Positions 11,744 to 32,592 of a stretch of 40,000 nucleotides of DNA are shown piece after piece. The translations under genes were made by a program, and so were the position numbers. Below the pieces are notes generated by a model that was not told the DNA's origin, ran no database searches, and saw only the letters and a program-made list of their open reading frames with translations. The stretch's first letter is position 1; the number at the start of each line of letters is the position of its first letter. The stretch comes from Bacillus sp. 28A-2 (GTDB lineage Bacteria; Bacillota; Bacilli; Bacillales; Bacillaceae): positions 18,248-58,247 of the forward strand of contig NZ_JACXXE010000012.1 of NCBI RefSeq assembly GCF_014764715.1, read 5' to 3'.

Positions 11744-12369
11744 TTATCCTCCTTTCTTCGATTCCTTTTCAAGCACTTCTAATTTGTGGGCTATTAACCC
11801 AAACAAAAAGGCCTTGAATCGCCTTGGCGCTTCATAGACCTCTAAGAGTTCAGACGGGGAGTAATGAAGCTCATGCATGCAGTAATACAGATACACAGCC
11901 TCTTTGTTCCCGTCTTTTATTAGTTTTTTGCTTCAGTTTCAAGGTCCTCAATTTCATCTTCAAACCCATTGACCTCAATTGCTTTGTTTAACCAGTTCGC
12001 ATATTCACCGCCGACAGACAGGACACGCTTTGCCACTTCGACTGGATCTTGGGTGCTGTATGCCTCACGCAATTCCTTTGATTTGAAATCAGGGTAAATG
12101 GTTGATTCAACCGCGATACGTGCATAGAAGCGTTGAGAATCCAAGTCTTTTACACGTCCACGACCTTTAACATTTTTGAACGTTGTGTTTTCCTTCTCCA
12201 ATTCGTCAATACGTTCAGTTGTAATGGCTTTAAATACGAATGGGATCACTTTACCTTCTTTATCAACGAAACGCTTTGAAATGATTGATTTGACCTCTTC
12301 CGCTTCTGTTGTTTGTCCTGGCATAAAGAATGAAAGATCATATACGTTGTTTGTTTGTTTTTCGCTCAT
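11744..12369 (-). CDS. Tail assembly chaperone, long isoform by predicted -1 frameshift
   Basis: After a slip at 11929-11923 the reading continues ...KKLIKDGNKEAVYLYYCMHELHYSPSELLEVYEAPRRFKAFLFGLIAHKLEVLEKESKKGG. It stops at 11746-11744, 3 nt before the tape measure ATG. This fills an otherwise gene-free 180 bp. Confidence 0.5.
11920..12369 (-). CDS. xkdN: Tail assembly chaperone, short form
   Basis: 149 aa from ATG 12369, which lies 9 nt after AAGGGAG (MSEKQTNNVYDLSFF...). Its position between the tube and tape measure genes fits. The track's longer 176-aa start lies in the intergenic region. Confidence 0.6.
   Translation of the reverse strand: MSEKQTNNVYDLSFFMPGQTTEAEEVKSIISKRFVDKEGKVIPFVFKAITTERIDELEKENTTFKNVKGRGRVKDLDSQRFYARIAVESTIYPDFKSKELREAYSTQDPVEVAKRVLSVGGEYANWLNKAIEVNGFEDEIEDLETEAKN
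11923..11929 (-). promoter_or_regulatory. Slippery heptamer A_AAA_AAC for a -1 programmed frameshift
   Basis: On the minus strand, GCA AAA AAC TAA places A_AAA_AAC in X_XXY_YYZ phase, ending directly at the chaperone stop codon. The -1 frame stays open for 59 more codons. Confidence 0.55.
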
Positions 12370-12403
12370 GTTTAAAAACTCCCTTTGATTTGTTTTTTTG
12401 AAT

Positions 12404-12438
12404 GCAAAAAAGCACATCCATTTTTTGAATGTGCTTTC
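12404..12438 (-). terminator. Intrinsic terminator-like hairpin just upstream of the chaperone gene
   Basis: A perfect 9-bp stem (aaagcacat 12410-12418 / atgtgcttt 12430-12438) with an 11-nt loop reads on the minus strand as stem, then a TTTTTT run that includes the last three stem bases, then GCATTC. Confidence 0.45.
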
Positions 12439-12451
12439 CAATCTTTTCATG

Positions 12452-12457
12452 TATAAT
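12452..12457 (+). promoter_or_regulatory. Candidate -10 box (TATAAT) for the toxin mRNA
   Basis: A perfect TATAAT preceded by TG lies about 70 nt upstream of the toxin ATG. No good -35 is present at 17 nt. Confidence 0.35.
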
Positions 12458-12527
12458 TGAGAACGTACAATTGAACGGCTTGCTCAAGGGTGTCTGGCTC
12501 ATCCCCGATAGGAAGGGGGTGATGCTC

Positions 12528-12611
12528 ATGTCAACGTTCCAAGCGATTTCCCTAATGCTTTTATTCGGGATGTTTATCCTTGCTTTGTTGACGTATATAA
12601 ACAAAAAATAG
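12528..12611 (+). CDS. Type I toxin, 27-aa hydrophobic peptide (Hol-Tox / BsrE-BsrH-like)
   Basis: SD GGAAGGGGGTGA lies 7 nt before ATG 12528. Translation is MSTFQAISLMLLFGMFILALLTYINKK, a single TM helix with a basic tail. It is on the opposite strand to all neighbours and resembles my recollection of B. subtilis BsrE. Confidence 0.65.
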   Translation: MSTFQAISLMLLFGMFILALLTYINKK

Positions 12612-12648
12612 ACTCCCCTTGAGCTTTGGACGGTTGAAGGGAAAGTCT
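12602..12648 (-). terminator. Intrinsic terminator of the candidate antitoxin RNA
   Basis: On the minus strand AGACTTTCCCTT (12648-12637) pairs with AAGGGGAGTCT (12620-12610): 11 bp with one bulge and a 16-nt loop. TTTTTT follows, which is the complement of the toxin's last Lys codons. Confidence 0.45.
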
Positions 12649-12730
12649 ATCCTTAAAACTATCTAATTGATAAGCCAGCCCCTTGAAGGGCCTCATTGTA
12701 CATTGCCGGGATGTTGACGCATCCTGGCTT
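12603..12730 (-). ncRNA. Candidate antisense antitoxin RNA (about 125 nt) complementary to the toxin mRNA 3' UTR
   Basis: It is bounded by a minus-strand promoter (TTTACA, 16 nt, TACAAT) and a minus-strand terminator. It contains no ORF. It fully overlaps the toxin 3' UTR and terminator. Confidence 0.4.
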
Positions 12731-12736
12731 CTTTTT
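12705..12736 (+). terminator. Intrinsic terminator of the toxin mRNA
   Basis: gccgggatg (12705-12713) pairs with catcctggc (12720-12728), including one G-U pair, around a 6-nt loop. TTCTTTTT follows. Confidence 0.6.
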
Positions 12737-12764
12737 ATTGTATGCAAATCACTTTGCATGTAAA
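12737..12764 (-). promoter_or_regulatory. Sigma-A-type promoter for the antisense RNA (TTTACA, 16 nt, TACAAT)
   Basis: On the minus strand the -35 TTTACA is at 12764-12759 and the -10 TACAAT at 12742-12737. The 16-nt spacer is itself a palindrome (tgcaaa tcac tttgca). Confidence 0.45.
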
Positions 12765-12802
12765 CAAGTTTTTTCTCGAATGGTGAATGGTGGGTTCACT
12801 AT

Positions 12803-12829
12803 TATCCCATGTATCCCATGTATCCCATT
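12803..12829. repeat. 9-bp tandem repeat x3 (TATCCCATG TATCCCATG TATCCCATT)
   Basis: Read directly from the sequence. It is intergenic, about 40 bp upstream of the antisense-RNA promoter on the minus strand. Confidence 0.9.
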
Positions 12830-12928
12830 TATCAAAAGTATATCATATTTGTACAAAAAAGTGAAAATACCTTATTTAAAAACACTCATAGTCAGTTCTT
12901 TTGTTACATTTTCTATGGTGATTAAATT

Positions 12929-13372
12929 TTAAAAGGAATCTTTCAGCTTCTCAGGAAGATCAAAGTCCTCAAACGTGAAAGGAACCTCTTCTTCAAGTGC
13001 CTCTGAATCGACATCTAGTCCAGCAATTTTAGCTGAATCAAAGTTCACATCAAACAATGTGACACGCTCTGTGCCGCGGCCAGATGATTTGTCATCCAGT
13101 ACAGCTTGAATGGTGAAGTATGGATCTTGTCCTTTCTTTACATAGTTCAGCATGAGCTGAACGAAACGTGATGTGACTTTATAGAAAGTCGCTGTGCCAG
13201 TACCATTCGCACCGGTTGTCTTGTGACCGGTCATACGACGGCCCATGACATTGACCTCTGATTTGTTTTTCTCCACGTTCGCTTCAAATGTTTTAATAAA
13301 CGCCAATTCCTCACCATCGAGGAATAAGCGTCCTTCCTTACCTGAAATGGTATTCTGCGCTTTAAAAGCCAT
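12929..13372 (-). CDS. xkdM: Tail tube protein
   Basis: 147-aa ORF (the same length as PBSX XkdM) immediately after the sheath gene. The N-terminus is MAFKAQNTISGKEGRLFLDGEE... Confidence 0.8.
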   Translation of the reverse strand: MAFKAQNTISGKEGRLFLDGEELAFIKTFEANVEKNKSEVNVMGRRMTGHKTTGANGTGTATFYKVTSRFVQLMLNYVKKGQDPYFTIQAVLDDKSSGRGTERVTLFDVNFDSAKIAGLDVDSEALEEEVPFTFEDFDLPEKLKDSF

Positions 13373-13373
13373 C

Positions 13374-14720
13374 TTATTTCACCTCTACATTGAAATAGAA
13401 TTTTTCAGCTGCATCAACAGGTTGAACAGCTAGATCAATCAAGAAACCGTCACGATCTTCATTTAAAGCGATCGTAATATCTGTTTCAGAGTCAAAGCCA
13501 GTGATTCCAGATCCATCTTGGAGCTGCGTGAGATATTGTGTGATGAGTGTTTTCACCAGCTGCAGCCCATCATCAGATGCAGGAATGTCATTGCCGTTGG
13601 CTTTGCGTAATTTAATCAGATTCTTCAATTCTCTCGTTAGATCGTTGTTGATCGCATCGAGCACTCGGACAATTTTGTTTTTCCCGAATGTCTTGTTCTT
13701 CTCGGTTGTGTAAGTCGTTAAGGAGTTAATGTCCTTTTCAACGCTTACTGTGCGATCTCTCGCATCAAATGTGAACAAGAATTCGCCTTGTGATAAGCGG
13801 TATTCCACTTGATCATTATCAAGACGCTCTAACGTATCCACAGCACCCTCATATTCAACAAAGGTTAACGACTGATTGAAGTTGGCTCCTGCAGATGCAC
13901 CGGCAACCCATGCTGTTGCTTTTGCTGGCGTGATCTCTGTTCCATCTTCTAGCAAGACACCGCTTGTGACATTGATAATTCCTTCATGATCAGCCGGATA
14001 GTTTGCCAAAACTCCTTGCACCTTACGTCCTTGATCATCACGCAGCCGCTTGACGAAAGCCACAAATGTCGCTTTTAATTGCTCACTAGTGTTATTAGGC
14101 AGCGCGATCACGTCAAAGTATTCTGTCTCAGCTGCTTCAAGAAATGCTGTGTAATCTGCCACGCTTGGAACACCATTTTTCCCACCGCTTAGTGTTACAC
14201 CAGCGGTGATTGTCACTTCACCTTCACCAGAGAACGAAACATATTTGTTTTGCTTCAGCTCTTTGACATCAGTGACAACCTGCTTATCAACAATGTCTGT
14301 ACCAACGTAAGTCACCACATCACGCTTGGAGCTATCCAATACGTTTTCAGTGACTTGGATCGTGACCTCATTCCCTTTCTGTCCACCATAATTAGCAAGA
14401 ACGTTGAAATTCTCGCTGATCTGAGCCTTTGCTGGCTCACCTTCATTCAGGCGATACAAAAGAACCGTTTGTGCTTTTTTCTTCGCTTCTCGGAAAAGAA
14501 GCAGTGATTTGTCATCAATGTTTAATCCGACTTTTTTATTTAAGTCCTCGATGCCTGAGATAGAGATGAACGTCTTAGGCTCTCCCCAACTCATTGTGAT
14601 TGGGAGTGCAACGGTGCCGCGATCACCTAACGTGATACGCTGCTGTGCTGTGGTTTTGAAATTGAAGTAGATACCAGGGCGCTTCTTTTCTGTACCTGGT
14701 GTAAAAGTACCTCCATTCAT
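13374..14720 (-). CDS. xkdK: Contractile tail sheath protein
   Basis: 448-aa ORF. The N-terminus MNGGTFTPGTEKKRPGIYFNF is typical of sheath proteins. It is followed by the tube gene. Confidence 0.85.
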   Translation of the reverse strand: MNGGTFTPGTEKKRPGIYFNFKTTAQQRITLGDRGTVALPITMSWGEPKTFISISGIEDLNKKVGLNIDDKSLLLFREAKKKAQTVLLYRLNEGEPAKAQISENFNVLANYGGQKGNEVTIQVTENVLDSSKRDVVTYVGTDIVDKQVVTDVKELKQNKYVSFSGEGEVTITAGVTLSGGKNGVPSVADYTAFLEAAETEYFDVIALPNNTSEQLKATFVAFVKRLRDDQGRKVQGVLANYPADHEGIINVTSGVLLEDGTEITPAKATAWVAGASAGANFNQSLTFVEYEGAVDTLERLDNDQVEYRLSQGEFLFTFDARDRTVSVEKDINSLTTYTTEKNKTFGKNKIVRVLDAINNDLTRELKNLIKLRKANGNDIPASDDGLQLVKTLITQYLTQLQDGSGITGFDSETDITIALNEDRDGFLIDLAVQPVDAAEKFYFNVEVK

Positions 14721-24192: not shown

Positions 24193-24195
24193 TTT
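24164..24195 (+). terminator. Canonical intrinsic terminator oriented on the plus strand
   Basis: gagggtg (24164-24170) pairs with caccctc (24178-24184) around a 7-nt loop, then TTTTTTTATTT. On the minus strand the same hairpin has no U-tract. Confidence 0.6.
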
Positions 24196-25471
24196 ACAAC
24201 GAGTCAACAAGCTCTGGAGTGATGCCTGTGAATTCCGTGAATCGCTTCTTAATAACGTCACAGAAATACGGATCAAGTTCTAATAGAAAAGCTTCTCTAT
24301 CCGTTTGCTCACAAGTCATAAGAGTTGAGCCGCTACCTCCAAAGAAATCTACCACTCTATCACCTTTTTTACTGTTGTTACTTAATGGAATATTTATCAG
24401 TTCAAGTGGTTTTTGTGTTGGATGAACATATTTTGAAACGTCACCACGCGAAACTTCCCATACAGTTGCTGGACCCGTTTCTTCTGTTAAATCAGTTCTC
24501 CAAACTGTAACTTGCTTTTTATCACCATACCAATGTGGTGAGCACCCCTTTTTGAATGCATAGAAAACAGGCTCATGCATATATCGATATTGGCCCCACC
24601 CAAATGTAGCTGAATTTTTCACCCATATGCATTGCGACCTAACTTTTATACCAGCGTTTAGCATTTCTTTTTCAAAGTTTAATTGATAAGTAGGCGAGTG
24701 GAATACATAAATGGCTGCTTTCTCATTCATGACCCTAGAATAATTCAGGAATGTATCCCTTAAAAAAGTATCGAACTGTTCATCATCCATCGAATCATTC
24801 ATGATTGTTGCATGACCATCCTCATTTAATTTCTTACTATTACTTTTTACAGCTACATTATAAGGTGGATCAGTAATAACTAGATCGGCTTTATATCCCG
24901 ACATTAGACGATCAACGTCAGCTGCTTTTGTGGCATCACCGCACACTAAGGTGTGGCGGCCAAGCCGCCACACATCTCCATACTTTGTTTCAGGCTCACT
25001 GATTTGTGATAGAGCTTCAGAAACATCGAAGTCATCATCTTCTACAACTGTATTACCGTTGTCTACAGACAGGTTTTCTAGCAGCTCCTCATATTCTTCT
25101 TGAGAATACCCGATGATGTTTGTATCAAAATTGTTTTCCTTCAGCTCTGATAAAAGAGCCTCTAGTTTTTCCTCATCCCAATCGCCTTCAATTTTGTTTA
25201 ATGCAATATTGAGCGCCTTCTCTTCTTTTTCGTTCAAAGAAACCACAGACACTTTGATTTCAGTTGGGTTCGATTCTAATAAGATTTTGAACCTTTGATG
25301 TCCACCTACTAAATTACCTGTCTTCTCGTTCCAGATGAGCGGATCAATATATCCGAAATGCTCTATCGACGCTTTCAACTCTTCGTATGCTTTGTCTCCT
25401 GGTTTCAGATCAACACGTGGATGATAGGCAGCGGGATTTATTTGACTGACGGGTATATCTTTTATAATCAA
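24194..25471 (-). CDS. ParB-like nuclease domain fused to an N6/N4 DNA methyltransferase (beta class)
   Basis: The N-terminal ParB-like block carries GGHQRF. The MTase motifs are ITDPPYN (IV) followed later by VVDFFGGSGST (I). The start is set at TTG 25471, 6 nt after GAGGTG, giving MIIKDIPVSQINP, parallel to the paralog's MNIKTIPVHKINP. Confidence 0.85.
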   Translation of the reverse strand: MIIKDIPVSQINPAAYHPRVDLKPGDKAYEELKASIEHFGYIDPLIWNEKTGNLVGGHQRFKILLESNPTEIKVSVVSLNEKEEKALNIALNKIEGDWDEEKLEALLSELKENNFDTNIIGYSQEEYEELLENLSVDNGNTVVEDDDFDVSEALSQISEPETKYGDVWRLGRHTLVCGDATKAADVDRLMSGYKADLVITDPPYNVAVKSNSKKLNEDGHATIMNDSMDDEQFDTFLRDTFLNYSRVMNEKAAIYVFHSPTYQLNFEKEMLNAGIKVRSQCIWVKNSATFGWGQYRYMHEPVFYAFKKGCSPHWYGDKKQVTVWRTDLTEETGPATVWEVSRGDVSKYVHPTQKPLELINIPLSNNSKKGDRVVDFFGGSGSTLMTCEQTDREAFLLELDPYFCDVIKKRFTEFTGITPELVDSL

Positions 25472-25503
25472 TTGAAACACCTCTTGTATTATTTCATGTT
25501 GTT

Positions 25504-26526
25504 TTACTTAAACCATTGCAAATGTATCTGTTCCGCGATCCGCTTCATCATCACTGGAGGCACGCTCATACCACAGACATACTGCGTTGATGCATCCATA
25601 AAGTCATAATCCAACGGAAAAGATTGCATCAGAATAATATCCCTTGTTGAGATGTAATATGGTTCGTCGTATCTAATAAAGACCGAACCACTTGCAAGTG
25701 TTGGCGGAACTAAACTGTTTTTCACTAATACTGTATTGAAATTCCGCTCTTTACCTTCTGTTCGTTTAGTTATGTCTCCAATGTTGCCGTCAGATGGCTG
25801 CCGCTTAATCCATCTTTTATACGTTTTACTCGATTCATTCAGCCTTGACCCATGTCCACTTCTAAACTCTCCATATGTGATCGGTGGTTCATTGAAAGCC
25901 AATTTCAATGGTGGTAAGTTCAGGTCCTTTCTGCGGCCAATGAAAAAGACCCGCTCTCTTCTCTGCGGGACTCCCATTGTGGCAGCGTTCAGCAAGAACA
26001 GCTGAACGTCATACCCTATTTCTTTTGCACGCTCTATGACAAGTTTCACATACCCTTTAGCTTTTCCTTTGATCATGCCGCTTACGTTCTCAGCTACAAA
26101 GATTTTAGGCTTCAAACGTTCTACAGCATCTAGGTAATGAAAGAACAGATCGTCTAGTTTTTGGACAGCTTGGCCCTCTCTGAACGCCTTTTCTCTTCCC
26201 CAATCCTCTTCTCTTTTTCCGGCCGTTGAAAACACACTGCATGGCGGCGATCCGTCAAACACATCAAGATTCATGAGTTCTTCAGGAAGATCGGAGAGCG
26301 GGATCTGATTAAACTCTCGAATGTCCATGAGATAAGGATATTTCGGCTTGTGATTCTTTTTATAGATTTTCATCATTTGCGGATCGATCTCACAGTTTCC
26401 CAGCAATTCAAACCCTGCTAATTTGTAGCCCATTGATGAGCCGCCACCGCATGAGAATGTACTGAACACTTTCAACCCATTGGAAGAGATGTTTTTAAGA
26501 TCACTCAATTTCCATCTATAGTTCAT
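25504..26526 (-). CDS. DNA (cytosine-5) methyltransferase
   Basis: Motifs FSCGGGSSMGY (I), GSPPCSVFS (IV), AENV (VI) and QRRERVFFIG (VIII) are all present in a 340-aa ORF. Confidence 0.9.
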   Translation of the reverse strand: MNYRWKLSDLKNISSNGLKVFSTFSCGGGSSMGYKLAGFELLGNCEIDPQMMKIYKKNHKPKYPYLMDIREFNQIPLSDLPEELMNLDVFDGSPPCSVFSTAGKREEDWGREKAFREGQAVQKLDDLFFHYLDAVERLKPKIFVAENVSGMIKGKAKGYVKLVIERAKEIGYDVQLFLLNAATMGVPQRRERVFFIGRRKDLNLPPLKLAFNEPPITYGEFRSGHGSRLNESSKTYKRWIKRQPSDGNIGDITKRTEGKERNFNTVLVKNSLVPPTLASGSVFIRYDEPYYISTRDIILMQSFPLDYDFMDASTQYVCGMSVPPVMMKRIAEQIHLQWFK

Positions 26527-26534
26527 GTTTTCAC

Positions 26535-27053
26535 CTACTCATTGTATGAAAAACCGCATTTAGGACACGTATGTTCAAATTGATCATCCCCAAAGTCATC
26601 TAAGTCAATTTCTTTACTTTCAGATACAGTCCCACCTTGCCCTGTATGCTCTAGTTGTTGAAGAATGTCCTCTAGTTCCGTATCACTGAATCCTGTTGCG
26701 CTGAGATCATATCCTGATTTCTCTAGTTCCTTGATTAGTTCAGAGAGTTTGTATTCATCCCAATCACCATCTATCTTATTAAGGGCAATATTCAAAGCTT
26801 TTTCGTCTTGTTCATTAAGCGATACAACAGATACAAGAATTTCACTTGGATTATCCTCCATCAATACTTTGAAACGTTGATGACCGCCTACAAGGTGACC
26901 TGTCCGTTCATTCCATACTAAGGGATCAATGTATCCAAATTTTTTTATTGAGTTTTTCAGAGAGTCGTATTCTGGATCTCCTGGCTGCAGATCAATTCGA
27001 GGGTTATAAGGTGATGGGTTAATTTTATGTACGGGAATTGTTTTGATATTCAT
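26535..27053 (-). CDS. Stand-alone ParB-like nuclease-domain protein with a C-terminal CxxC element
   Basis: 172-aa ORF with a strong SD (TAGGAGGAA). It aligns by eye along about 135 aa with the N-terminus of the ParB-MTase fusion. It ends ...HTCPKCGFSYNE. Confidence 0.75.
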   Translation of the reverse strand: MNIKTIPVHKINPSPYNPRIDLQPGDPEYDSLKNSIKKFGYIDPLVWNERTGHLVGGHQRFKVLMEDNPSEILVSVVSLNEQDEKALNIALNKIDGDWDEYKLSELIKELEKSGYDLSATGFSDTELEDILQQLEHTGQGGTVSESKEIDLDDFGDDQFEHTCPKCGFSYNE

Positions 27054-27069
27054 CGCTGTTTCCTCCTAT

Positions 27070-27103
27070 AAAAACAAATGATGCCGCCCTAGAGGCGGCA
27101 TCA
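27070..27103 (-). terminator. Intrinsic terminator after the 114-aa moron
   Basis: A perfect 10-bp stem (tgatgccgcc 27079-27088 / ggcggcatca 27094-27103) with a 5-nt loop is followed by a T-rich run on the minus strand. Confidence 0.7.
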
Positions 27104-27108
27104 GCTGC

Positions 27109-27453
27109 TTACTTGATGTAAAATTCGCTAGTGTAGAATGTTCCAAGGGTTGCAACATGATTGCCCTTTTTGTCGTAACGTTCCACATCAACTTTAAAGC
27201 GATAAGTGCCTTTCTTGTTATCAAGTGATTCCTTGATACCGAATTCATCGTACTGTTTTTCACCTGGATTAAGCGGGTTAGGTGAATTCGTTTTGATTGT
27301 GACCCATTTCCCTTCAACTTTTCGTTGAGGAATAAGGTTGGGACCAGCACTAAAGTCGTTGTGGTTTTGTACCGCAATTCGTACAACCTTATCCTCTCCA
27401 ATTTTGTGATTAGCTTTTGTCGGGTTCGCCGACACTCCAAATCCTGATGCCAT
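27109..27453 (-). CDS. Stand-alone moron protein, beta-rich, unknown function
   Basis: About 114 aa from ATG 27453, 9 nt after AAAGGGAG. It has no signal peptide. Terminators flank it on both sides, so it forms its own transcription unit. Confidence 0.5.
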   Translation of the reverse strand: MASGFGVSANPTKANHKIGEDKVVRIAVQNHNDFSAGPNLIPQRKVEGKWVTIKTNSPNPLNPGEKQYDEFGIKESLDNKKGTYRFKVDVERYDKKGNHVATLGTFYTSEFYIK

Positions 27454-27540
27454 GCTCTTCATCTCCCTTTTTATATTTTTGCGCTCCTATCCCTCACCAA
27501 AGCACGTGCAGCCATACACCCAAAAGACGACTGTTCCCAT

Positions 27541-27565
27541 AAAAAAAGACGCCCCAAGGGACGCC
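27541..27565 (-). terminator. Intrinsic terminator after the CotD-like gene
   Basis: On the minus strand GGCGTCC pairs with GGGGCGTC (7 bp including two G-U pairs, 4-nt loop), followed by TTTTTTT. Confidence 0.55.
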
Positions 27566-27590
27566 AGTACAAAGTATTAATTTTAAAATA

Positions 27591-27875
27591 TTATCTATCC
27601 ACACGACGGCAACAAGGATTCTTCAAGTCACTTCCACAATCGTATTCTTCGACATAGCATTTATTCTCATAAGATTCTGTTACAGGATAGAAATTCTTAA
27701 TTCTTTTGATATGTTTATTTACATTTGTAATGTGAGTCGGATGGATTCGTCTGATAGTGCTCTCGCTTGTTGTTGTTCTTACAATATTACGTGTTGGAGA
27801 AACAATTGTTTCGTCCTGACCATTATTTCCCCTACGAGAACCAAAGAAAAAATCGTCCATTCTGTTGCGGCTCAT
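27591..27875 (-). CDS. CotD-family (inner spore coat protein D-like) protein
   Basis: 94 aa from ATG 27875, 8 nt after GAAGGAG. IHPTHITNVNKHIKRIKNFYP and the Cys-rich tail (CYVEEYDCGSDLKNPCC) resemble the CotD family (recall). Confidence 0.55.
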   Translation of the reverse strand: MSRNRMDDFFFGSRRGNNGQDETIVSPTRNIVRTTTSESTIRRIHPTHITNVNKHIKRIKNFYPVTESYENKCYVEEYDCGSDLKNPCCRRVDR

Positions 27876-27911
27876 ATAAAACACTCCTTCAACAGTTTTG
27901 ACTTTACGTCA

Positions 27912-27938
27912 CATACTATGAAAAAAAAGTCAGGTTGT
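27912..27938 (-). promoter_or_regulatory. Possible mother-cell (sigma-K-like) promoter: AC, 16 nt, CATAgtaTG
   Basis: On the minus strand AC is at 27938-27937 and CATAGTATG at 27920-27912, about 30 nt upstream of the CotD-like SD. This is one mismatch from my recalled AC-N16/17-CATANNNTA consensus. Confidence 0.25.
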
Positions 27939-27984
27939 CCTAAGCACTTATCATAAAAAATGAAAAATCCACTTAATAACTATG

Positions 27985-28164
27985 TTACTTTCTTCTAATG
28001 CGTCCACCATGTCGTTTGTAAGTTTCGCGTCTCGTTCCCATGATTTCTTCCCAATCCCTATTCGTAATGGGATCAGCATCGCTCTTCTTCTTTCTAATAG
28101 AACCAGAAGCAATGCTTTTAAATTGCTTTAATGTCTCTTTAGAAACAGAATCCCTGATCTTCAT
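27985..28164 (-). CDS. Small basic protein, unknown function
   Basis: 59 aa from ATG 28164, 8 nt after AAGGAG: MKIRDSVSKETLKQFK...RHGGRIRRK. Confidence 0.4.
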   Translation of the reverse strand: MKIRDSVSKETLKQFKSIASGSIRKKKSDADPITNRDWEEIMGTRRETYKRHGGRIRRK

Positions 28165-28417
28165 TTCACTCGCTCCTTGCCGAATAAGCACCACCTTACG
28201 CTATTCGCTTAAATTAGATTTTGCAATGATGACTACACTCCGAGAGGATGCCAAGTACAGTCAATCATCAAGTAAAATGAAAAACTGTCCTCGATACGGC
28301 CACCGCAGACCAGCTGCTATCCAGGCTCAGAATGTCCCTCTCGTATGACCACATTCCTCAACACCTTTGTTCCGTATCCAGATACGCCATTGATAAGGGA
28401 AAGACGCGTCTCCCAAT

Positions 28418-28473
28418 AAAAAAAGCGGACACCAATCAAGGCACTCTTAAAGTGCTCAATGATCAGCGTCCGC
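28418..28473 (-). terminator. Orphan long hairpin plus T7 (terminator-like) with no upstream ORF
   Basis: Outer stem GCGGAC pairs with GTCCGC (28473-28468 / 28430-25) and inner stem GCACT pairs with AGTGC. TTTTTTT follows on the minus strand. Confidence 0.5.
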
Positions 28474-28542
28474 AGGTTCTTCCTTCTGGACAAATATTCA
28501 CGTTCGTTTTGCTTGTCTCTATCATACGATGATCCACTTAGG

Positions 28543-28600
28543 AAAAAAGGTCCCCTTTTTATCCCCCTTTTTGTCGGCTTTTTCTCGGTTTTTTCTCGGC
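28543..28600. repeat. Helically phased T/A tracts with degenerate direct repeats of about 11 bp (ctcgg(c/t)ttttt)
   Basis: T-tracts start at 28556, 28568, 28579 and 28589, a spacing of 12, 11 and 10 bp, after an A6 at 28543. Read directly from the sequence. Confidence 0.8.
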
Positions 28601-28605
28601 AATGC

Positions 28606-28637
28606 AAATAAAAAAAGTGCCCATAAACATGGACACT
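28606..28637 (-). terminator. Intrinsic terminator after the immunity gene
   Basis: agtgcccat (28616-28624) pairs with atggacact (28629-28637), 8 of 9 bp, with a 4-nt loop. T7 follows on the minus strand. Confidence 0.6.
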
Positions 28638-28646
28638 TTGGTTCTA

Positions 28647-29132
28647 TTATTCCCAAAACGCATCTCCTTCAGAATCAATATAATTCTGAAGGAAAGTTTC
28701 AAAATCTACATCAAGCAGCCTATATTCTAAACCATCTTCAAATAGATAAAGGTTGGAATTTTCCTTATTTAGTATCAAGTGGCACCCTTCAAAAAGAGCA
28801 GCAATAGCTGTTCCATCAACCTGATCAAAAAAATCATTAGACAACTCGGATTCGATTTCTTCTAAACTGAAAACGTGTAATCCTCCACCAACCTTGTTCC
28901 CAAAAACTATGTCTTCAAATATTCTTGCGCCATTATGTAGACATAAAAACTCTTTGAGATCGTCAGGCAATGTATGATGTTTCTTTTCAAATTGTTTTAT
29001 ATTTTCTTGATCGGCTGGGGCATTGAAGGTACAGCACTTTTCATAGACTTCACCGTCTACCGAGAATTTGATGATGTTCTTCTCATCTAATTGATTTTCA
29101 AGTTTTTCTAATATCTGCACGATCCTACTCAA
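28647..29132 (-). CDS. SMI1/KNR4 (SUKH-1) family immunity protein
   Basis: 161-aa ORF. LPDDLKEFLCLHNGARIFED is the hallmark SMI1/KNR4 core. A TTG start 4 nt after AAGGTGA lies 12 nt after the toxin stop. Confidence 0.7.
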   Translation of the reverse strand: MSRIVQILEKLENQLDEKNIIKFSVDGEVYEKCCTFNAPADQENIKQFEKKHHTLPDDLKEFLCLHNGARIFEDIVFGNKVGGGLHVFSLEEIESELSNDFFDQVDGTAIAALFEGCHLILNKENSNLYLFEDGLEYRLLDVDFETFLQNYIDSEGDAFWE

Positions 29133-29143
29133 TCTTTCACCTT

Positions 29144-30127
29144 CTATCTATATCCTCTCCACCAAGGAGAAACCTCTTGTTGATGCAGCGTTCTTGTGAG
29201 TGCATATAAATTACCCATTTTATTATCTCCACCATATTCTAAAGGAATAACATGGTGAATGTCTAAACCAGACCAATCCCATTTAGGATCGCCGTATTTA
29301 CCAATATACCATCTGATATATTTATTACGGATATCCTTATCTCTCTTAACTCTATCTTCAGGCTTATACCATTTCATATTTGCTTTTGTTGGTGCAGGCA
29401 ATGATTTACCACTATGACTATTATGAATTTGCGGATATTGATAAGCATTTTTATTAACTAAATATGTTTCAGTTGTACTCTGTTTAGTACCTGGGGCACT
29501 TCCGACCCAACCGGCTGTCAGTATATCAGATTTGTACACAAATTTCGTTTTCACCATTTTATACGTTTTAGATGCTGTAGCACCAACTTTTATCTGAGAA
29601 CCGGTAAATTCTTTAGTATACGTTGAAATTGCGTTATATTTCCCCGCGTAATCATCTCCTACAAATAGGGTGCTTCCTACAATTACAATAACCGGCTTCG
29701 CTTTGCCTATAATGCTACGAATTGTGGAACTATGAGTAATTGACTTTTTCGATTGATCTAACTTAAACAATGTATCAATGACAATTGTATTTGCGACTTT
29801 AGTATTAGCGTCTGGAGTCTTATTAGTATTTTTATTCTTAGTATTTTTATTCTTAGTGGATGGTTGCAGCACTACGGTGTCACCCTGTGGCATATTTCTT
29901 TGAGGTGGCTCATGAGGTTGGTTTTTAAATTGTTGTCTTGCTTGGTCAATTATATCAGATTTACTCTGTATTTCTTTTGCATGTCCATTTTCGTCAACTT
30001 CTAGTACATGTGTCTCTTTGTATGTTGTGATACCGTCCTTTGATTGACTAGCTTCAGCATCACTTGTCCATAACCATGCCGTCAACAGAAAAACCATAAA
30101 GAAAATCGAATAAGCAAATTTCTTCAT
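29144..30127 (-). CDS. Sec-signal protein with a C-terminal HNH (colicin-DNase-like) nuclease toxin domain
   Basis: The signal peptide is MKKFAYSIFFMVFLLTAWLWTSDAEA. The C-terminus is LDIHHVIPLEYGGDNKMGNLYALTRTLHQQ (HH...GG...N...H). It is followed by a SUKH gene. Confidence 0.6.
   Translation of the reverse strand: MKKFAYSIFFMVFLLTAWLWTSDAEASQSKDGITTYKETHVLEVDENGHAKEIQSKSDIIDQARQQFKNQPHEPPQRNMPQGDTVVLQPSTKNKNTKNKNTNKTPDANTKVANTIVIDTLFKLDQSKKSITHSSTIRSIIGKAKPVIVIVGSTLFVGDDYAGKYNAISTYTKEFTGSQIKVGATASKTYKMVKTKFVYKSDILTAGWVGSAPGTKQSTTETYLVNKNAYQYPQIHNSHSGKSLPAPTKANMKWYKPEDRVKRDKDIRNKYIRWYIGKYGDPKWDWSGLDIHHVIPLEYGGDNKMGNLYALTRTLHQQEVSPWWRGYR
29824..29853. repeat. 15-bp tandem duplication (TAGTATTTTTATTCT x2) encoding KNKNT-KNKNT
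   Basis: Read directly from the sequence. It lies inside the toxin linker region. Confidence 0.9.
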
Positions 30128-30211
30128 TCTGATACTCCTTTTCCAATTTATTTACAACAAATCCAATATACAATATATGTATCTATTTATAAATGATCCT
30201 AAAATACCATA

Positions 30212-30248
30212 TATACAAAAACAGCACTCATATGATTCCGAGTGCTGT
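30212..30248 (-). terminator. Intrinsic terminator overlapping the ArpU stop codon
   Basis: A perfect 9-bp stem (acagcactc 30221-30229 / gagtgctgt 30240-30248) with a 10-nt loop is followed by a TTTTT run (its first T is the last stem base) on the minus strand. Confidence 0.6.
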
Positions 30249-30611
30249 TGAAAGATTAAACGTCGCTTGCTTCTTCAATTTGTAATACCGGTCTTTCTTC
30301 AGACCCAGTTCTTCACACACCTCCAAATCCTTCACCACACGTGATGTCAGGTATTTCATACGGATGATGTCTTGCTCAATTTCATCTAGGCTGTTTTCTA
30401 GCGCTCTTTCTATCTGCCGGACCTTCAGTTCGTTTAAAGCTTCCTGGTTCCTGAGAGAAGGAAAAAGGCCTGTTGCGCCGTTTGCCTCCTGTTCCTTTCT
30501 GTTTTCTTCCTTCACCTTAAGGGCTCTATAAACCTTCAGCTCCTTGATCAGAGCATTCCGGACTTGTTTCTCATCGATCCCTGGCAGTAAACACAATTGT
30601 TCAGCTCTCAT
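30228..30611 (-). CDS. arpU: ArpU-family phage late transcriptional regulator
   Basis: 127 aa from ATG 30611, 9 nt after AGGAGGAGG. The C-terminal LDEIEQDIIRMKYL...GLKKDRYYKLKKQA fits the ArpU/sigma-region-4-like pattern (recall). Confidence 0.65.
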   Translation of the reverse strand: MRAEQLCLLPGIDEKQVRNALIKELKVYRALKVKEENRKEQEANGATGLFPSLRNQEALNELKVRQIERALENSLDEIEQDIIRMKYLTSRVVKDLEVCEELGLKKDRYYKLKKQATFNLSTALGII

Positions 30612-30776
30612 GCTTCTCAACCTCCTCCTATAAACAATGAAAGACATAAACAAACACTAATCTCTTATACAAATTCGAAAGTCTAAATTTGCGCATAAAA
30701 ATAAAAAAATTAAAGACTTATAAGTTAATAAACCCTTTAGTAAACTAAAAATAAATTTAGCACTGGAGGGAAATCA

Positions 30777-31160
30777 ATGTCTTTTTTATATTTATTTCTA
30801 GCAGTAATAGGTGAACTTATTGGGTCATCAATGCTTAAAGCATCTGAAGGATTTACAAAAATATATCCCACTATTAGTTTAATACTCTCTTTTGTAGGAT
30901 CATTCTTCTTTTTATCATTAGCTATGAAAACTATTCCATTAAATACTGTATATGCACTTTGGTCTGGTATAGGGATAATTGCTACAACTATAATTTCAGT
31001 TCTAATCTGGAAAGAAAAAATAAATGTGGCCAGCTTTACTGGAATTACTTTAATTCTTATAGGTGTAGTAATACTAAATCTTTTCGGGCCTGGACATGGT
31101 GAAGCAAAAAGTGATGAACACACAAAGACAACATTAGAATATTCAAATGAAACGAAATAA
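30777..31160 (+). CDS. SMR-family (QacC/Smr/EmrE-like) small multidrug efflux protein
   Basis: 127-aa ORF with four TM segments, the conserved membrane Glu (IGELIGSSMLK) and the LKASEGFTK and WSGIGI motifs, like staphylococcal Smr. SD GGAGGG precedes it. It is on the plus strand. Confidence 0.85.
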   Translation: MSFLYLFLAVIGELIGSSMLKASEGFTKIYPTISLILSFVGSFFFLSLAMKTIPLNTVYALWSGIGIIATTIISVLIWKEKINVASFTGITLILIGVVILNLFGPGHGEAKSDEHTKTTLEYSNETK

Positions 31161-31171
31161 AGATGTACAAG

Positions 31172-31200
31172 AGAAGAATCTTCATTGAGAAGATTCTTCT
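31172..31200. terminator. Perfect 12-bp hairpin between convergent genes (probable bidirectional terminator)
   Basis: agaagaatcttc (31172-31183) pairs with gaagattcttct (31189-31200) around a 5-nt loop. TATGTTTCT follows on the plus strand. Confidence 0.6.
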
Positions 31201-31283
31201 TATGTTTCTATACGCCATTTGATATCACCCAGCGCCATCCAAAGCCCTTCATATGACATGTTTTCAGATGGTTTAAATTCCAT
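31200..31283 (-). CDS. 27-aa micro-ORF (MEFKPSENMSYEGLWMALGDIKWRIET)
   Basis: It is not in the ORF track (under 60 aa). A strong SD (GAGGGAGGAAC) sits directly before ATG 31283. It ends in the terminator hairpin. Confidence 0.3.
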   Translation of the reverse strand: MEFKPSENMSYEGLWMALGDIKWRIET

Positions 31284-31294
31284 ATGTTCCTCCC

Positions 31295-31495
31295 TCAGAA
31301 AAGTGTCAGCTGTTCCTGGTGTTGTTCTTTTTCCTTTATTAAAAAATGCCTGGCTTCAAATGCTCCATAGTGTGAGCCAGGACTATCAAATTTTGATACA
31401 TAATAATGAGCGGAACCGAGAGGAAAGAGAAAGTATTCTACGCCCTTTTCTAACGGTGTAAACTCATCAGTGAGACATATTCCCTTCAAGCTCAT
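31295..31495 (-). CDS. Small phage protein, unknown function
   Basis: 66 aa from ATG 31495 (MSLKGICLTDEF...). An ATGA overlap couples its start to the stop of the upstream gene. Confidence 0.45.
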   Translation of the reverse strand: MSLKGICLTDEFTPLEKGVEYFLFPLGSAHYYVSKFDSPGSHYGAFEARHFLIKEKEQHQEQLTLF

Positions 31496-31716
31496 GCCAC
31501 GCTTTCCCATGGCAACCGCTCGACCCTTTTCATACTTCCGGCGCAACCGACTCGACCGATATTTCGGCGTGCTGCTTGATAGGTAGAATACGTGTCATAC
31601 TCGCTCCATTTTCCTTCTGCAAGTAAATCAGAACGCCAATAGGCAACATATCCGCTCGCTGTATTGACGATACAAAATTCAGCATCCGGAGATTTTGAAT
31701 ACCAGATTTCTTTCAT
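31492..31716 (-). CDS. Small phage protein, unknown function
   Basis: 74-aa ORF with GGGAGG 8 nt before the ATG. Confidence 0.5.
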   Translation of the reverse strand: MKEIWYSKSPDAEFCIVNTASGYVAYWRSDLLAEGKWSEYDTYSTYQAARRNIGRVGCAGSMKRVERLPWESVA

Positions 31717-31748
31717 TTTGACTGCCTCCCTGCAGGAGGAAGCTCCTG

Positions 31749-31952
31749 CTATTTTATTTTGTGTGAACTCGAGTAATTTAAATTTGTGAATTGGCCGTCA
31801 CGTGTAGTGATTTCCGTTTTCCCGTAAATAGGTGCTTCAGCTAAAAATGCTTCGTTGGAATGGCCATCTAGGATAATGACTTTAACTTCTCCTTTTTCAA
31901 AAAGCAGATCAATTGAGATGTTAGAGTCTATATGTTTGTAAGGATTATTCAT
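31749..31952 (-). CDS. Small phage protein, unknown function
   Basis: 67 aa from ATG 31952 (MNNPYKHID...). The track's earlier ATG is part of the GGGAGG SD. Confidence 0.45.
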   Translation of the reverse strand: MNNPYKHIDSNISIDLLFEKGEVKVIILDGHSNEAFLAEAPIYGKTEITTRDGQFTNLNYSSSHKIK

Positions 31953-32024
31953 GCGCACAAGGCCTCCCATGTTATAATGAATTGTCGAGATTCATTAGAG
32001 CCGGAGCCTTGTGCTTTGGTTCTT

Positions 32025-32306
32025 TTATTTGCTCTGGAGAGCTTGCAAATCACGTACATACATTTCAAATAGATGCTTGTCCTTTATGTCTAAGGACAAA
32101 TTAATCAGATCCTTTAAGCCAGCTTCAGTGATTGCCACATCTAAGTTTTTAGCCCAATGTTTAGGAACAGCCGTAGACTTTCCTTTAGGCGGCTTCACTA
32201 AAAGTTCATATTCAGAGATTTTCACGACGTAACCAGATATATGAAACATTCTGCGATTAACTTCACCCAAAGCTTCCACCCAATCGCCTTCTACAATCTT
32301 TCTCAT
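32025..32306 (-). CDS. Small phage protein, possibly IDEAL-domain-like
   Basis: 93 aa from ATG 32306, 9 nt after AAGGAG. The C-terminus LINLSLDIKDKHLFEMYVRDL loosely resembles the IDEAL motif (recall, weak). Confidence 0.4.
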   Translation of the reverse strand: MRKIVEGDWVEALGEVNRRMFHISGYVVKISEYELLVKPPKGKSTAVPKHWAKNLDVAITEAGLKDLINLSLDIKDKHLFEMYVRDLQALQSK

Positions 32307-32461
32307 TTCCTGAAGCTCCTTCCACACTTCGAGCAGTAAGGACCATTGAAAACCCGCGTGCTAAATTCCAACCAATAACCACGCTGCACCGAAACTATAT
32401 TTCTACATTTGAAGCAAAAGAAGTGCTTATTTTTGAAGAAAAACTTGATTTTTTCAATCAT
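32303..32461 (-). CDS. 52-aa zinc-ribbon micro-protein (CxxC...CxxC)
   Basis: Hand translation gives MIEKIKFFFKNKHFFCFKCRNIVSVQRGYWLEFSTRVFNGPYCSKCGRSFRK. ATGA overlaps occur at both ends. It is below the ORF-track cutoff. Confidence 0.4.
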   Translation of the reverse strand: MIEKIKFFFKNKHFFCFKCRNIVSVQRGYWLEFSTRVFNGPYCSKCGRSFRK

Positions 32462-32592
32462 TCGACAACCCTCCATCCTTTCTTAATCCTACTGACTAGT
32501 TCATATTTTTTAAGTGGTTCATAGAGGTGGACGTGCCGTCCACCCTCTTTGCGATAAAGCAAGAACCACCGTTTCGAGCGTTTGCGTGCCAT
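32458..32592 (-). CDS. 44-aa basic micro-protein
   Basis: MARKRSKRWFLLYRKEGGRHVHLYEPLKKYELVSRIKKGWRVVE. The ATG lies 1 nt after the stop of the 232-aa gene. This is the non-overlapping tail of the track's 111-aa ORF. Confidence 0.3.
   Translation of the reverse strand: MARKRSKRWFLLYRKEGGRHVHLYEPLKKYELVSRIKKGWRVVE

Follow-up and report, generated by a model that had tools for sequence, protein, structure and literature searches.

The Sec pathway is a recognized export route for polymorphic toxins (Zhang et al. 2012, Table 1, PMC3482391), and it is the signal carried by the toxins of the ABP or S8-PTS systems, which comprise the toxin AbpT, a co-exported S8 protease AbpP and AbpI, a cytoplasmic immunity protein (PMC9424270, PMC12582261, PMC13460014). 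ABP toxins consist of a Sec signal, a BetaH domain and a cationic nuclease, one class of which is an HNH-fold 'XHH' DNase; how they enter cells has been called 'enigmatic' (2026 ABP review), and the S8-PTS paper mentions SUKH just as a previously known immunity fold. A solved example of an HNH toxin domain, 8cm0, is the DNase domain (Rhs2CT) of the Serratia marcescens type VI secretion system (T6SS) effector Rhs2, whose immunity protein RhsI2 is not a SUKH protein and has a previously undescribed, predominantly alpha-helical structure. Here we describe a two-gene cassette carried by a prophage of Bacillus sp. 28A-2, a B. pumilus-group genome, located in a 40,000-nucleotide (nt) stretch of contig NZ_JACXXE010000012.1 (positions 18,248 to 58,247; hereafter the window, whose own numbering we use throughout), which encodes a predicted Sec-exported HNH nuclease of 327 amino acids (aa) and a SUKH-family (SMI1/KNR4) protein of 161 aa.

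That the cassette specifies an exported HNH nuclease and its cognate SUKH inhibitor is, judged by sequence comparison, very probably correct. We also favor, with noticeably less assurance, an antibacterial model as a whole, in which the nuclease would be a basic HNH DNase toxin exported by Sec, the acidic SUKH protein would provide cytoplasmic immunity, and the pair would be prophage cargo that favors lysogens. Both open reading frames (ORFs) lie on the minus strand at 28647..30127, where a preliminary description of the window had placed a two-gene pair. The toxin and immunity reading offered there gains support from the occurrence of the same nuclease module at the ends of RHS/PT-HINT and PT-TG proteins, from the constant adjacency of a SUKH gene, and from truncated toxin genes that stand beside intact SUKH genes.

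The toxin ORF (29144..30127, minus strand) begins with ATG, and its 327-aa product is an exact match to NCBI WP_191098138.1 of Bacillus sp. 28A-2, which carries the name 'HNH endonuclease signature motif containing protein'. The 90% cluster to which it belongs lies in the B. pumilus group and counts 81 members, from B. altitudinis, pumilus, safensis, xiamenensis and aerophilus. Close homologs are few, forming six 90%-identity clusters confined to Bacillaceae, and a profile built from them and searched against 1.8 billion representatives retrieved 596 proteins at E ≤ 1e-3, of which 34 reached E ≤ 1e-30. We modeled the protein with AlphaFold (AF2) from a 68-sequence alignment (predicted local distance difference test score, pLDDT, 88.1; predicted template modeling score, pTM, 0.82), which replaced an earlier 7-sequence AF2 model (pLDDT 58.6) that was too weak for the middle region.

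The first 26 residues (30050..30127, minus) have the layout of a signal peptide, with MKK, a 17-residue hydrophobic core and AEA followed by S, and are modeled as a helix over residues 2–19, in keeping with the Sec signal and cleavage after AEA that had been proposed. Signal peptides were judged by a home-made rule that combines hydropathy and charge, under which 47 of 52 full-length relatives have a similar N-terminus; most of the relatives that were not flagged have no positively charged start or no hydrophobic core, as if truncated N-terminally. Cleavage would leave a mature protein of 301 aa with an isoelectric point (pI) of 9.7 and a net charge of +18. Its N-terminal region (residues 27–110; 29798..30049, minus), modeled as a strand (33–43), a helix (56–68) and a disordered linker, is poorly conserved and has low occupancy in the alignment. 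Within the linker lies a 15-bp tandem duplication (29823..29857, minus; Tandem Repeats Finder: period 15, 2.3 copies, 100% matches), which accounts for the KNKNT repeats as first described and encodes TKNKN-TKNKN in a stretch modeled at pLDDT below 50. The nearest relatives (P0001 and L001; 322 aa, 97–98% identical) carry one 15-bp copy fewer, so the duplication appears to be a recent strain-specific slip with no obvious consequence.

The linker is followed by a seven-stranded beta domain (residues ~111–214; 29486..29797, minus), whose strands span residues 114–218 in the model at pLDDT 91–98 and which is basic, with a pI of 9.8; this is the middle region that had been noted as beta-rich and unassignable. 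Pfam models match it in none of the 68 relatives, and Foldseek searches of the PDB and BFVD gave nothing below E 1e-3, the best matches being generic Ig-like sandwiches at E ~1e-2. A search with a beta-domain profile (A3) in a set of 5.8 billion proteins returned nothing, known family members included, and is uninformative for that reason. Among variants, P0048 is a 78-aa product that joins the signal peptide straight to the HNH end and looks like an internal deletion, and in Peribacillus butanolivorans (L003 5034..5861, a locus masked in part with N) the toxin gene is seemingly interrupted by an ORF that resembles, by eye, a group II intron reverse transcriptase.

The C-terminal module (residues ~215–327; 29147..29485, minus) was delimited where RHS, PT-HINT and PT-TG proteins begin to match, at profile positions ~204–220, and has a pI of 9.67 and a net charge of +8. 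The model places a helix at residues 266–278, strands at 288–292 and 307–311 and a further helix at 312–326, with pLDDT 95–98 over residues 260–327. The last three of these elements make up an HNH beta-beta-alpha core (residues 288–326; 29150..29266, minus) with key residues H291, H292, N306 and H315. Across the 68 relatives H292, N306 and G300 are conserved at 100% and H291 and H315 at 97%, and 47 of the 68 match PF01844 (E ≤ 0.01). Foldseek aligned the C-terminus to Cas8-HNH domains with probability 1.0 (root-mean-square deviation ~3 Å over ~75 columns), and the family profile matched, among solved structures, Cas8f-HNH (E 3.8e-5), a group II intron maturase (2.6e-3) and Rhs2CT (8cm0; 6.5e-3); the 327-aa sequence by itself gave marginal PDB matches, with 8cm0 the best of them. 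Sequence and model together make it a solid assignment that the C-terminus is a PF01844-type HNH nuclease module with all of its catalytic residues intact. Of the colicin-DNase/HNH identity given in the preliminary description, the HNH part holds, with its nearest neighbors in Cas8-HNH, the group II maturase HNH and Rhs2CT, and the colicin-DNase part has to be dropped, as PF12639 gave no match at E ≤ 1 for the 327-aa protein and none at E ≤ 0.01 among the 68 relatives; a Colicin-DNase type was rejected on this ground. The named Tox-HNH subfamily models in Pfam gave no match either. Tox-REHH was also rejected as a class for this protein, since it is described as having no detectable similarity to characterized families and the domain in the window is a recognizable HNH.

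The C-terminal ~110 residues recur as the ends of RHS, RHS plus PT-HINT, PT-TG, CBM96, Disaggr_repeat and S8-peptidase/fn3 proteins, and those of the CBM96 and Disaggr_repeat kinds start with a signal-peptide-like N-terminus. By these sequence matches, the HNH module reads as a toxin cassette common to different scaffolds. One of the fusions, P0046, for which no encoding contig is recorded, is a 1239-aa protein that joins an S8 peptidase, an fn3 domain and the HNH module.

The second gene of the pair (28647..29132, minus) starts with TTG, and its product matches SMI1_KNR4 (SUKH-1; PF09346) at 43.9 bits vs a cut-off of 25.4 (E 4.4e-11, model positions 1–124 of 125) and phrog_36924 at 7.6e-85, in agreement with the SMI1/KNR4 gene first described downstream of the toxin gene. 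It is acidic (pI 4.4, net charge −21), and its cluster has 125 members vs 81 for the toxin cluster. Residues 35–80 also give a weak partial match to the PADLOC candidate family PDC-M40A (E 2.1e-5), which probably reflects the shared SUKH domain rather than a role in defense.

An SMI1_KNR4 gene adjoins the toxin gene in every Bacillota locus examined, that is in ~14 lineages besides the window, both prophage and chromosomal (L001–L005, L006–9, L010, L012, L013, L014/15, L016, L018 and L019). These cover prophages of B. xiamenensis and B. altitudinis, Peribacillus, Cytobacillus, Shouchella, Caldifermentibacillus and three metagenomic contigs, as well as fusion proteins of 1197 and 1005 aa, phage SPbetaL8 and an SPbetaL8-related contig. 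The Caldifermentibacillus pair is chromosomal and lies next to transposases. In SPbetaL8 (L012 4548..6119) and the related contig (L019 5001..6577), the toxin homolog (333–334 aa) and the SUKH gene are convergent, and both pairs adjoin LXG-HNH or LXG-WHH toxins; an SNase/Excalibur nuclease gene also lies near the pair in L012. Divergence of the SUKH protein roughly tracks that of the toxin, with SUKH/toxin identities to the window proteins of 96/97, ~38/~36, 34/37 and 29/32%. Two metagenomic proteins that end in the HNH module, one on an RHS/PT-HINT and one on a PT-TG scaffold, are followed by genes for proteins of 161–164 aa; that of the RHS locus has no recorded Pfam match, and that of the PT-TG locus has none at E ≤ 1.

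The toxin gene has decayed in several relatives that keep its partner. In Shouchella rhizosphaerae (L005) the last 55 toxin codons remain with an intact SUKH gene alongside, the Cytobacillus copy (L004) looks split, and in B. altitudinis the toxin is called as pieces of 64 and 237 aa (P0157/P0158) on many contigs in which the SUKH gene is intact. The closest relative in phage records is YokH of SPbeta (L011 4968..5525; B. subtilis 168), an SMI1/KNR4 protein 43–45% identical to the SUKH protein of the window, which is encoded between a Cry6-like gene and the LXG toxin gene yokI with no homolog of the window toxin beside it. Possibly YokH shields strain 168 from toxins of this family. As in polymorphic toxin systems, there are both orphan immunity genes and remnants of toxins here, and the retention of immunity without a toxin would be expected if the toxin comes from other cells and unexpected for a guard against a cell's own enzyme.

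The spacer between the two genes (29133..29143, minus), first given as 12 nt, is 11 nt and reads TAG-aaggtgaaaga-TTG; it includes the immunity gene's ribosome-binding site, AAGGTGA, whose position suggests that the toxin and immunity genes are translationally coupled. The toxin gene itself has a ribosome-binding site, AAAGGAG (30135..30141, minus), 7 nt ahead of its ATG. A terminator-like hairpin with an 11-bp stem (5 GC pairs) and a following T run (30220..30249, minus) lies at the end of arpU and parts that gene from the toxin gene, and another (28614..28639, minus), with an 11-bp stem followed by TTTTTTTATTT, starts 8 nt after the stop codon of the immunity gene, so that the proposed place after the arpU gene and the proposed terminator were both recovered; the surrounding 4-kb region has 8 such hairpins vs 2.3 expected from shuffles. 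The GC content of the pair is ~0.36 vs 0.38–0.44 nearby, and an Rfam scan of 27000–32500 gave no match. Read from the DNA, the toxin and SUKH genes make up a self-contained two-gene unit. Upstream of the toxin gene is a candidate sigma-70-like promoter, TTTATA-17-TATATT (30165..30193, minus; 9/12 matches, weak); such sites are fewer in the region than in its shuffles, and we therefore treat this one as a mere consensus match and no evidence of function.

The rival explanation that survives best takes the protein for an extracellular DNase that kills nothing and would break down DNA of the environment or of biofilms, for nutrition, the spread of virions after lysis or the limiting of transformation, with the SUKH protein as a cytoplasmic safety inhibitor of enzyme that folds ahead of export, in the manner of barnase–barstar or B. 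subtilis NucA–Nin. We consider this unlikely, though with enough weight to be taken seriously. The conserved signal peptide would suit such an enzyme as well, as would the absence of a recognizable translocation or receptor domain by Pfam in the 68 relatives and by Foldseek and of any C-terminal polymorphism found on the scaffold. Exported nucleases are also found on Bacillus prophages, among them SPbeta YokF (an annotated nuclease and putative lipoprotein) and the SNase and Excalibur gene of SPbetaL8, and the secreted DNases borne by Streptococcus pyogenes prophages provide a precedent. However, the same HNH module is found in RHS/PT-HINT and PT-TG toxins, which act within target cells, and the persistence of SUKH genes beside decayed nucleases (L005, the split B. 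altitudinis genes) or without one (YokH) would be senseless for pure self-protection. In addition, the corresponding slot and its neighbors in related prophages hold LXG toxin–immunity pairs.

Several points nevertheless weigh against the antibacterial model, the first being that, at the sequence level, it would be indistinguishable from an exported DNase accompanied by a safety inhibitor. The signal-peptide call rests on a simple rule rather than a trained predictor, the Pfam HNH model scores just 13 bits on the 327-aa protein alone (cut-off 21.4, E 0.12) and is sub-threshold, and the weak promoter candidate, the sole promoter-like match upstream, leaves expression of the cassette in the lysogen unproven. 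The beta domain has no informative structural relative by Foldseek, which provides no nameable entry route into Gram-positive targets. Searches with the full-length protein and with the N-terminal part alone, which have limited sensitivity, gave HNH-bearing or truncated relatives only; no different C-terminal toxin was found on the N-terminal and beta scaffold, and the classic signature of polymorphism is missing for this lineage.

Far less probable is an intracellular toxin–antitoxin or abortive-infection module directed against phage, in which the nuclease would attack phage or host DNA within the producing cell itself and the hydrophobic N-terminus would be a membrane anchor instead of a signal that is cleaved. 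Its 17-residue core is fairly long, prophage cargo slots often carry defense genes, and the partial PDC-M40A match of the SUKH protein could be counted in its favor. In this protein and most relatives, however, the hydrophobic core is succeeded by an A-x-A type site, either topology would leave the catalytic domain outside the membrane, and relatives of the module are the C-terminal ends of large CBM96 or Disaggr_repeat proteins with a signal-peptide-like start. Action on incoming phage DNA had been suggested when the pair was first described; we found nothing in support of it, the protein being predicted to be exported and the toxin having no PADLOC match. A phage housekeeping HNH, whether of the packaging-associated kind that occurs near terminase genes or a homing endonuclease, is scarcely credible: the position of the gene between the late activator gene arpU and the terminase region and an NCBI name that says solely 'HNH endonuclease signature motif containing protein' would fit it, but we rejected it in view of its signal peptide, its SUKH partner and the homologs in non-phage chromosomal loci beside transposases, and the module is moreover fused to RHS/PT-HINT proteins, the gene is ~5 kb and seven genes away from that of the small terminase, and it is truncated or split in several related genomes, in copies that may or may not belong to functional prophages.

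Under the antibacterial model, then, the toxin and SUKH genes would form one transcription unit between the two terminators, with translational coupling across the 11-nt spacer. The acidic SUKH protein would bind any toxin that either folds inside the lysogen's cytoplasm or gets back into it, as what is known of the family and, indirectly, the complementary charges (+18 vs −21) and the roughly parallel divergence would suggest. The pre-protein would be exported by Sec and cut after Ala26, freeing the 301-aa basic protein, which we speculate reaches neighbors that lack the prophage, with the beta domain as the candidate for envelope binding or entry. Given its intact catalytic residues, the HNH module would then cleave the DNA of the neighbor, while lysogens and other carriers of a matching SUKH protein would be spared, so that the cassette would benefit both host and prophage.

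The prophage context had also been recognized in the preliminary description and is confirmed by a small terminase, DNA methyltransferases and PHROG matches, alongside an ArpU gene (30228..30653) that matches TIGR01637 (E 1.1e-20). From right to left, the prophage contains replication genes, the ArpU gene, the toxin/SUKH pair, small cargo genes including a CotD-like one, a ParB-like gene, two DNA methyltransferase genes, the small terminase gene and structural genes. Megablast of the 2.3-kb region against phage records gave no match, and tblastn against them found a distant toxin homolog in SPbetaL8 in addition to YokH. Compared with a B. altitudinis prophage (L010), a block that starts within arpU and ends shortly after the SUKH terminator has 94.8% identity, whereas the phage backbone is just 81–87% identical, and L010 carries a 2.4-kb insertion exactly after the toxin/SUKH pair, which encodes a 548-aa LXG/PT-TG/EndoU toxin and a 139-aa downstream gene product (11744..13829). 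This comparison, together with the lower GC content of the pair, marks the slot following arpU as a variable cargo site in which toxin–immunity modules gather, and with the LXG-EndoU module directly after the HNH/SUKH pair the slot stacks two toxin modules that differ in export route.

Just past the SUKH terminator (28551..28600) are ~3 copies of an 11-bp tandem repeat, CTTTTTCTCGG, and a related TCCCCCTTTTA pair, at the junction where L010 holds its 2.4-kb LXG-EndoU insertion, and a 74-nt segment (28421..28494) resembles L010 11543..11612. These repeats and the L010-like segment may be recombination scars of cargo exchange. On the other side, just upstream of arpU, is an SMR/QacE-like multidrug efflux gene on the plus strand (30777..31160; PF00893 E 1.9e-26; phrog_1395), a segment across which L010 has no DNA similarity and upstream of which Rfam detected no riboswitch. 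The cargo region also contains a 97-aa ORF (27591..27884, minus) with a match (PF11122, E 4.5e-20) to CotD, a protein of the inner spore coat; it is unusual for a prophage to carry such a homolog. Upstream of the terminase gene, three consecutive minus-strand genes (24194..27053) encode a 428-aa fusion of ParB_N with an N6/N4 methyltransferase, a 340-aa C5 cytosine methyltransferase and a stand-alone ParB-like protein of 172 aa.

By what means protein toxins pass the Gram-positive envelope when no injection machine is involved is still an open question, for which this family offers a small and simple second test case: the mature protein has ~300 residues, the cassette has two genes, and the locus carries no accessory protease gene. 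The family is compact and widespread in Bacillota, it occurs in Bacillus strains that are easily handled, and it comes with natural controls in the form of non-lysogens, of strains whose toxin is split while the immunity gene is intact, and of SPbeta YokH. We entertain as a tentative possibility, well short of an even chance, that the Bacillota proteins with this signal-peptide, beta-domain and HNH order are a second family of diffusible Gram-positive protein antibiotics, independent of a protease and spread by prophages, with the beta domain as a new entry module. If that were true, the basic seven-stranded domain would be a new module for envelope binding or entry, and the toxin/SUKH weapon would make lysogeny pay. 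The locus also adds evidence for interchangeable toxin–immunity cargo in a fixed Bacillus prophage slot, which bears on why lysogens outcompete non-lysogens. If the protein were merely an exported DNase with a safety inhibitor, it would be an ordinary accessory gene.

Compared with known systems, the cassette comes closest to ABP/S8-PTS among those characterized, with which it has in common a Sec signal, a beta-rich domain of ~100–120 aa, a cationic C-terminal nuclease and a cytoplasmic immunity gene, and whose proposed mode is that of a diffusible protein toxin among Bacillota. The strongly cationic toxin domain of those systems is matched here (+8 for residues 215–327, +18 for the mature protein), whereas we found no alternative toxin domains on the window scaffold. 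BetaH, which we could compare by its description only, consists of an acidic seven-stranded sheet that encloses a C-terminal helix, and it has a dibasic cleavage motif; the beta domain in the window also has seven strands but is basic (pI 9.8), and the confident helix (56–68) is N-terminal to the sheet. Colicin N RBD and TipC were not among the top Foldseek matches of the window protein. In the window, the pair is flanked upstream by the ArpU gene and, past the SUKH gene, by small cargo genes of the prophage; no gene for an S8 protease adjoins the toxin gene there or in L006–10, L013, L014, L016 and L019. Since this defining component was absent from every locus examined, we do not file the cassette as ABP/S8-PTS.

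Polymorphic HNH toxins with SUKH immunity (Zhang, Iyer and Aravind 2011; Zhang et al. 2012, PMC3482391) have a C-terminal HNH domain and an adjacent immunity gene in common with the cassette, whose module is instead carried by a short scaffold that has a Sec signal and a beta domain of its own. Serratia Rhs2CT has weak but specific sequence similarity to the module, yet Rhs2 is delivered by the T6SS and the window protein has a Sec signal. Type VII secretion system (T7SS) LXG pairs, such as SPbeta YokI/YokJ and YqcG/YqcF of the skin element, are prophage cargo that combines a nuclease toxin with SUKH-family immunity in the same neighborhoods as the family described here, but the window protein has a Sec signal in place of LXG and its export would be independent of the T7SS. 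The LXG domain (PF04740) gave no match in the 327-aa protein and was easily detected in the neighboring LXG toxins of L010 and L012, and we therefore do not assign the cassette to this class. The nuclease colicins and pyocins (E7/E9–Im7/Im9) are likewise released modular proteins in which a binding or entry part precedes a C-terminal HNH DNase with a tightly linked immunity gene, but they have Im-type immunity and are released by lysis as toxin–immunity complexes, in contrast to the SUKH protein, the Sec signal and the Gram-positive target envelope of the present case.

Exported nucleases paired with an acidic cytoplasmic inhibitor are familiar from B. subtilis NucA–Nin, barnase–barstar and Anabaena NucA–NuiA, which resemble the cassette in encoding a small acidic inhibitor alongside the exported nuclease. 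The DNase_NucA_NucB Pfam model has no match in the window protein, and we know of no entry of NucA, barnase or Anabaena NucA into other cells; the persistence of SUKH without the nuclease argues for defense against an incoming toxin. WapA (Bacillus, Streptococcus suis; PMC12704120) and MafB (Neisseria; PMC4287609) combine, like the cassette, a signal peptide with a toxin at the C-terminus and an immunity gene downstream, but the former is a large wall-associated RHS/YD protein and the latter has a MAFB-N domain, while the window protein has 301 mature residues and neither of these. With Sec listed among the routes in Zhang et al. 2012 and MafB and WapA, alongside ABP/S8-PTS, as studied cases of this recognized class, Sec export is not the new delivery format that it was first suggested to be. 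What is uncharacterized here is the toxin family itself and its beta domain, set within a toxin–antidote logic that is already well known.

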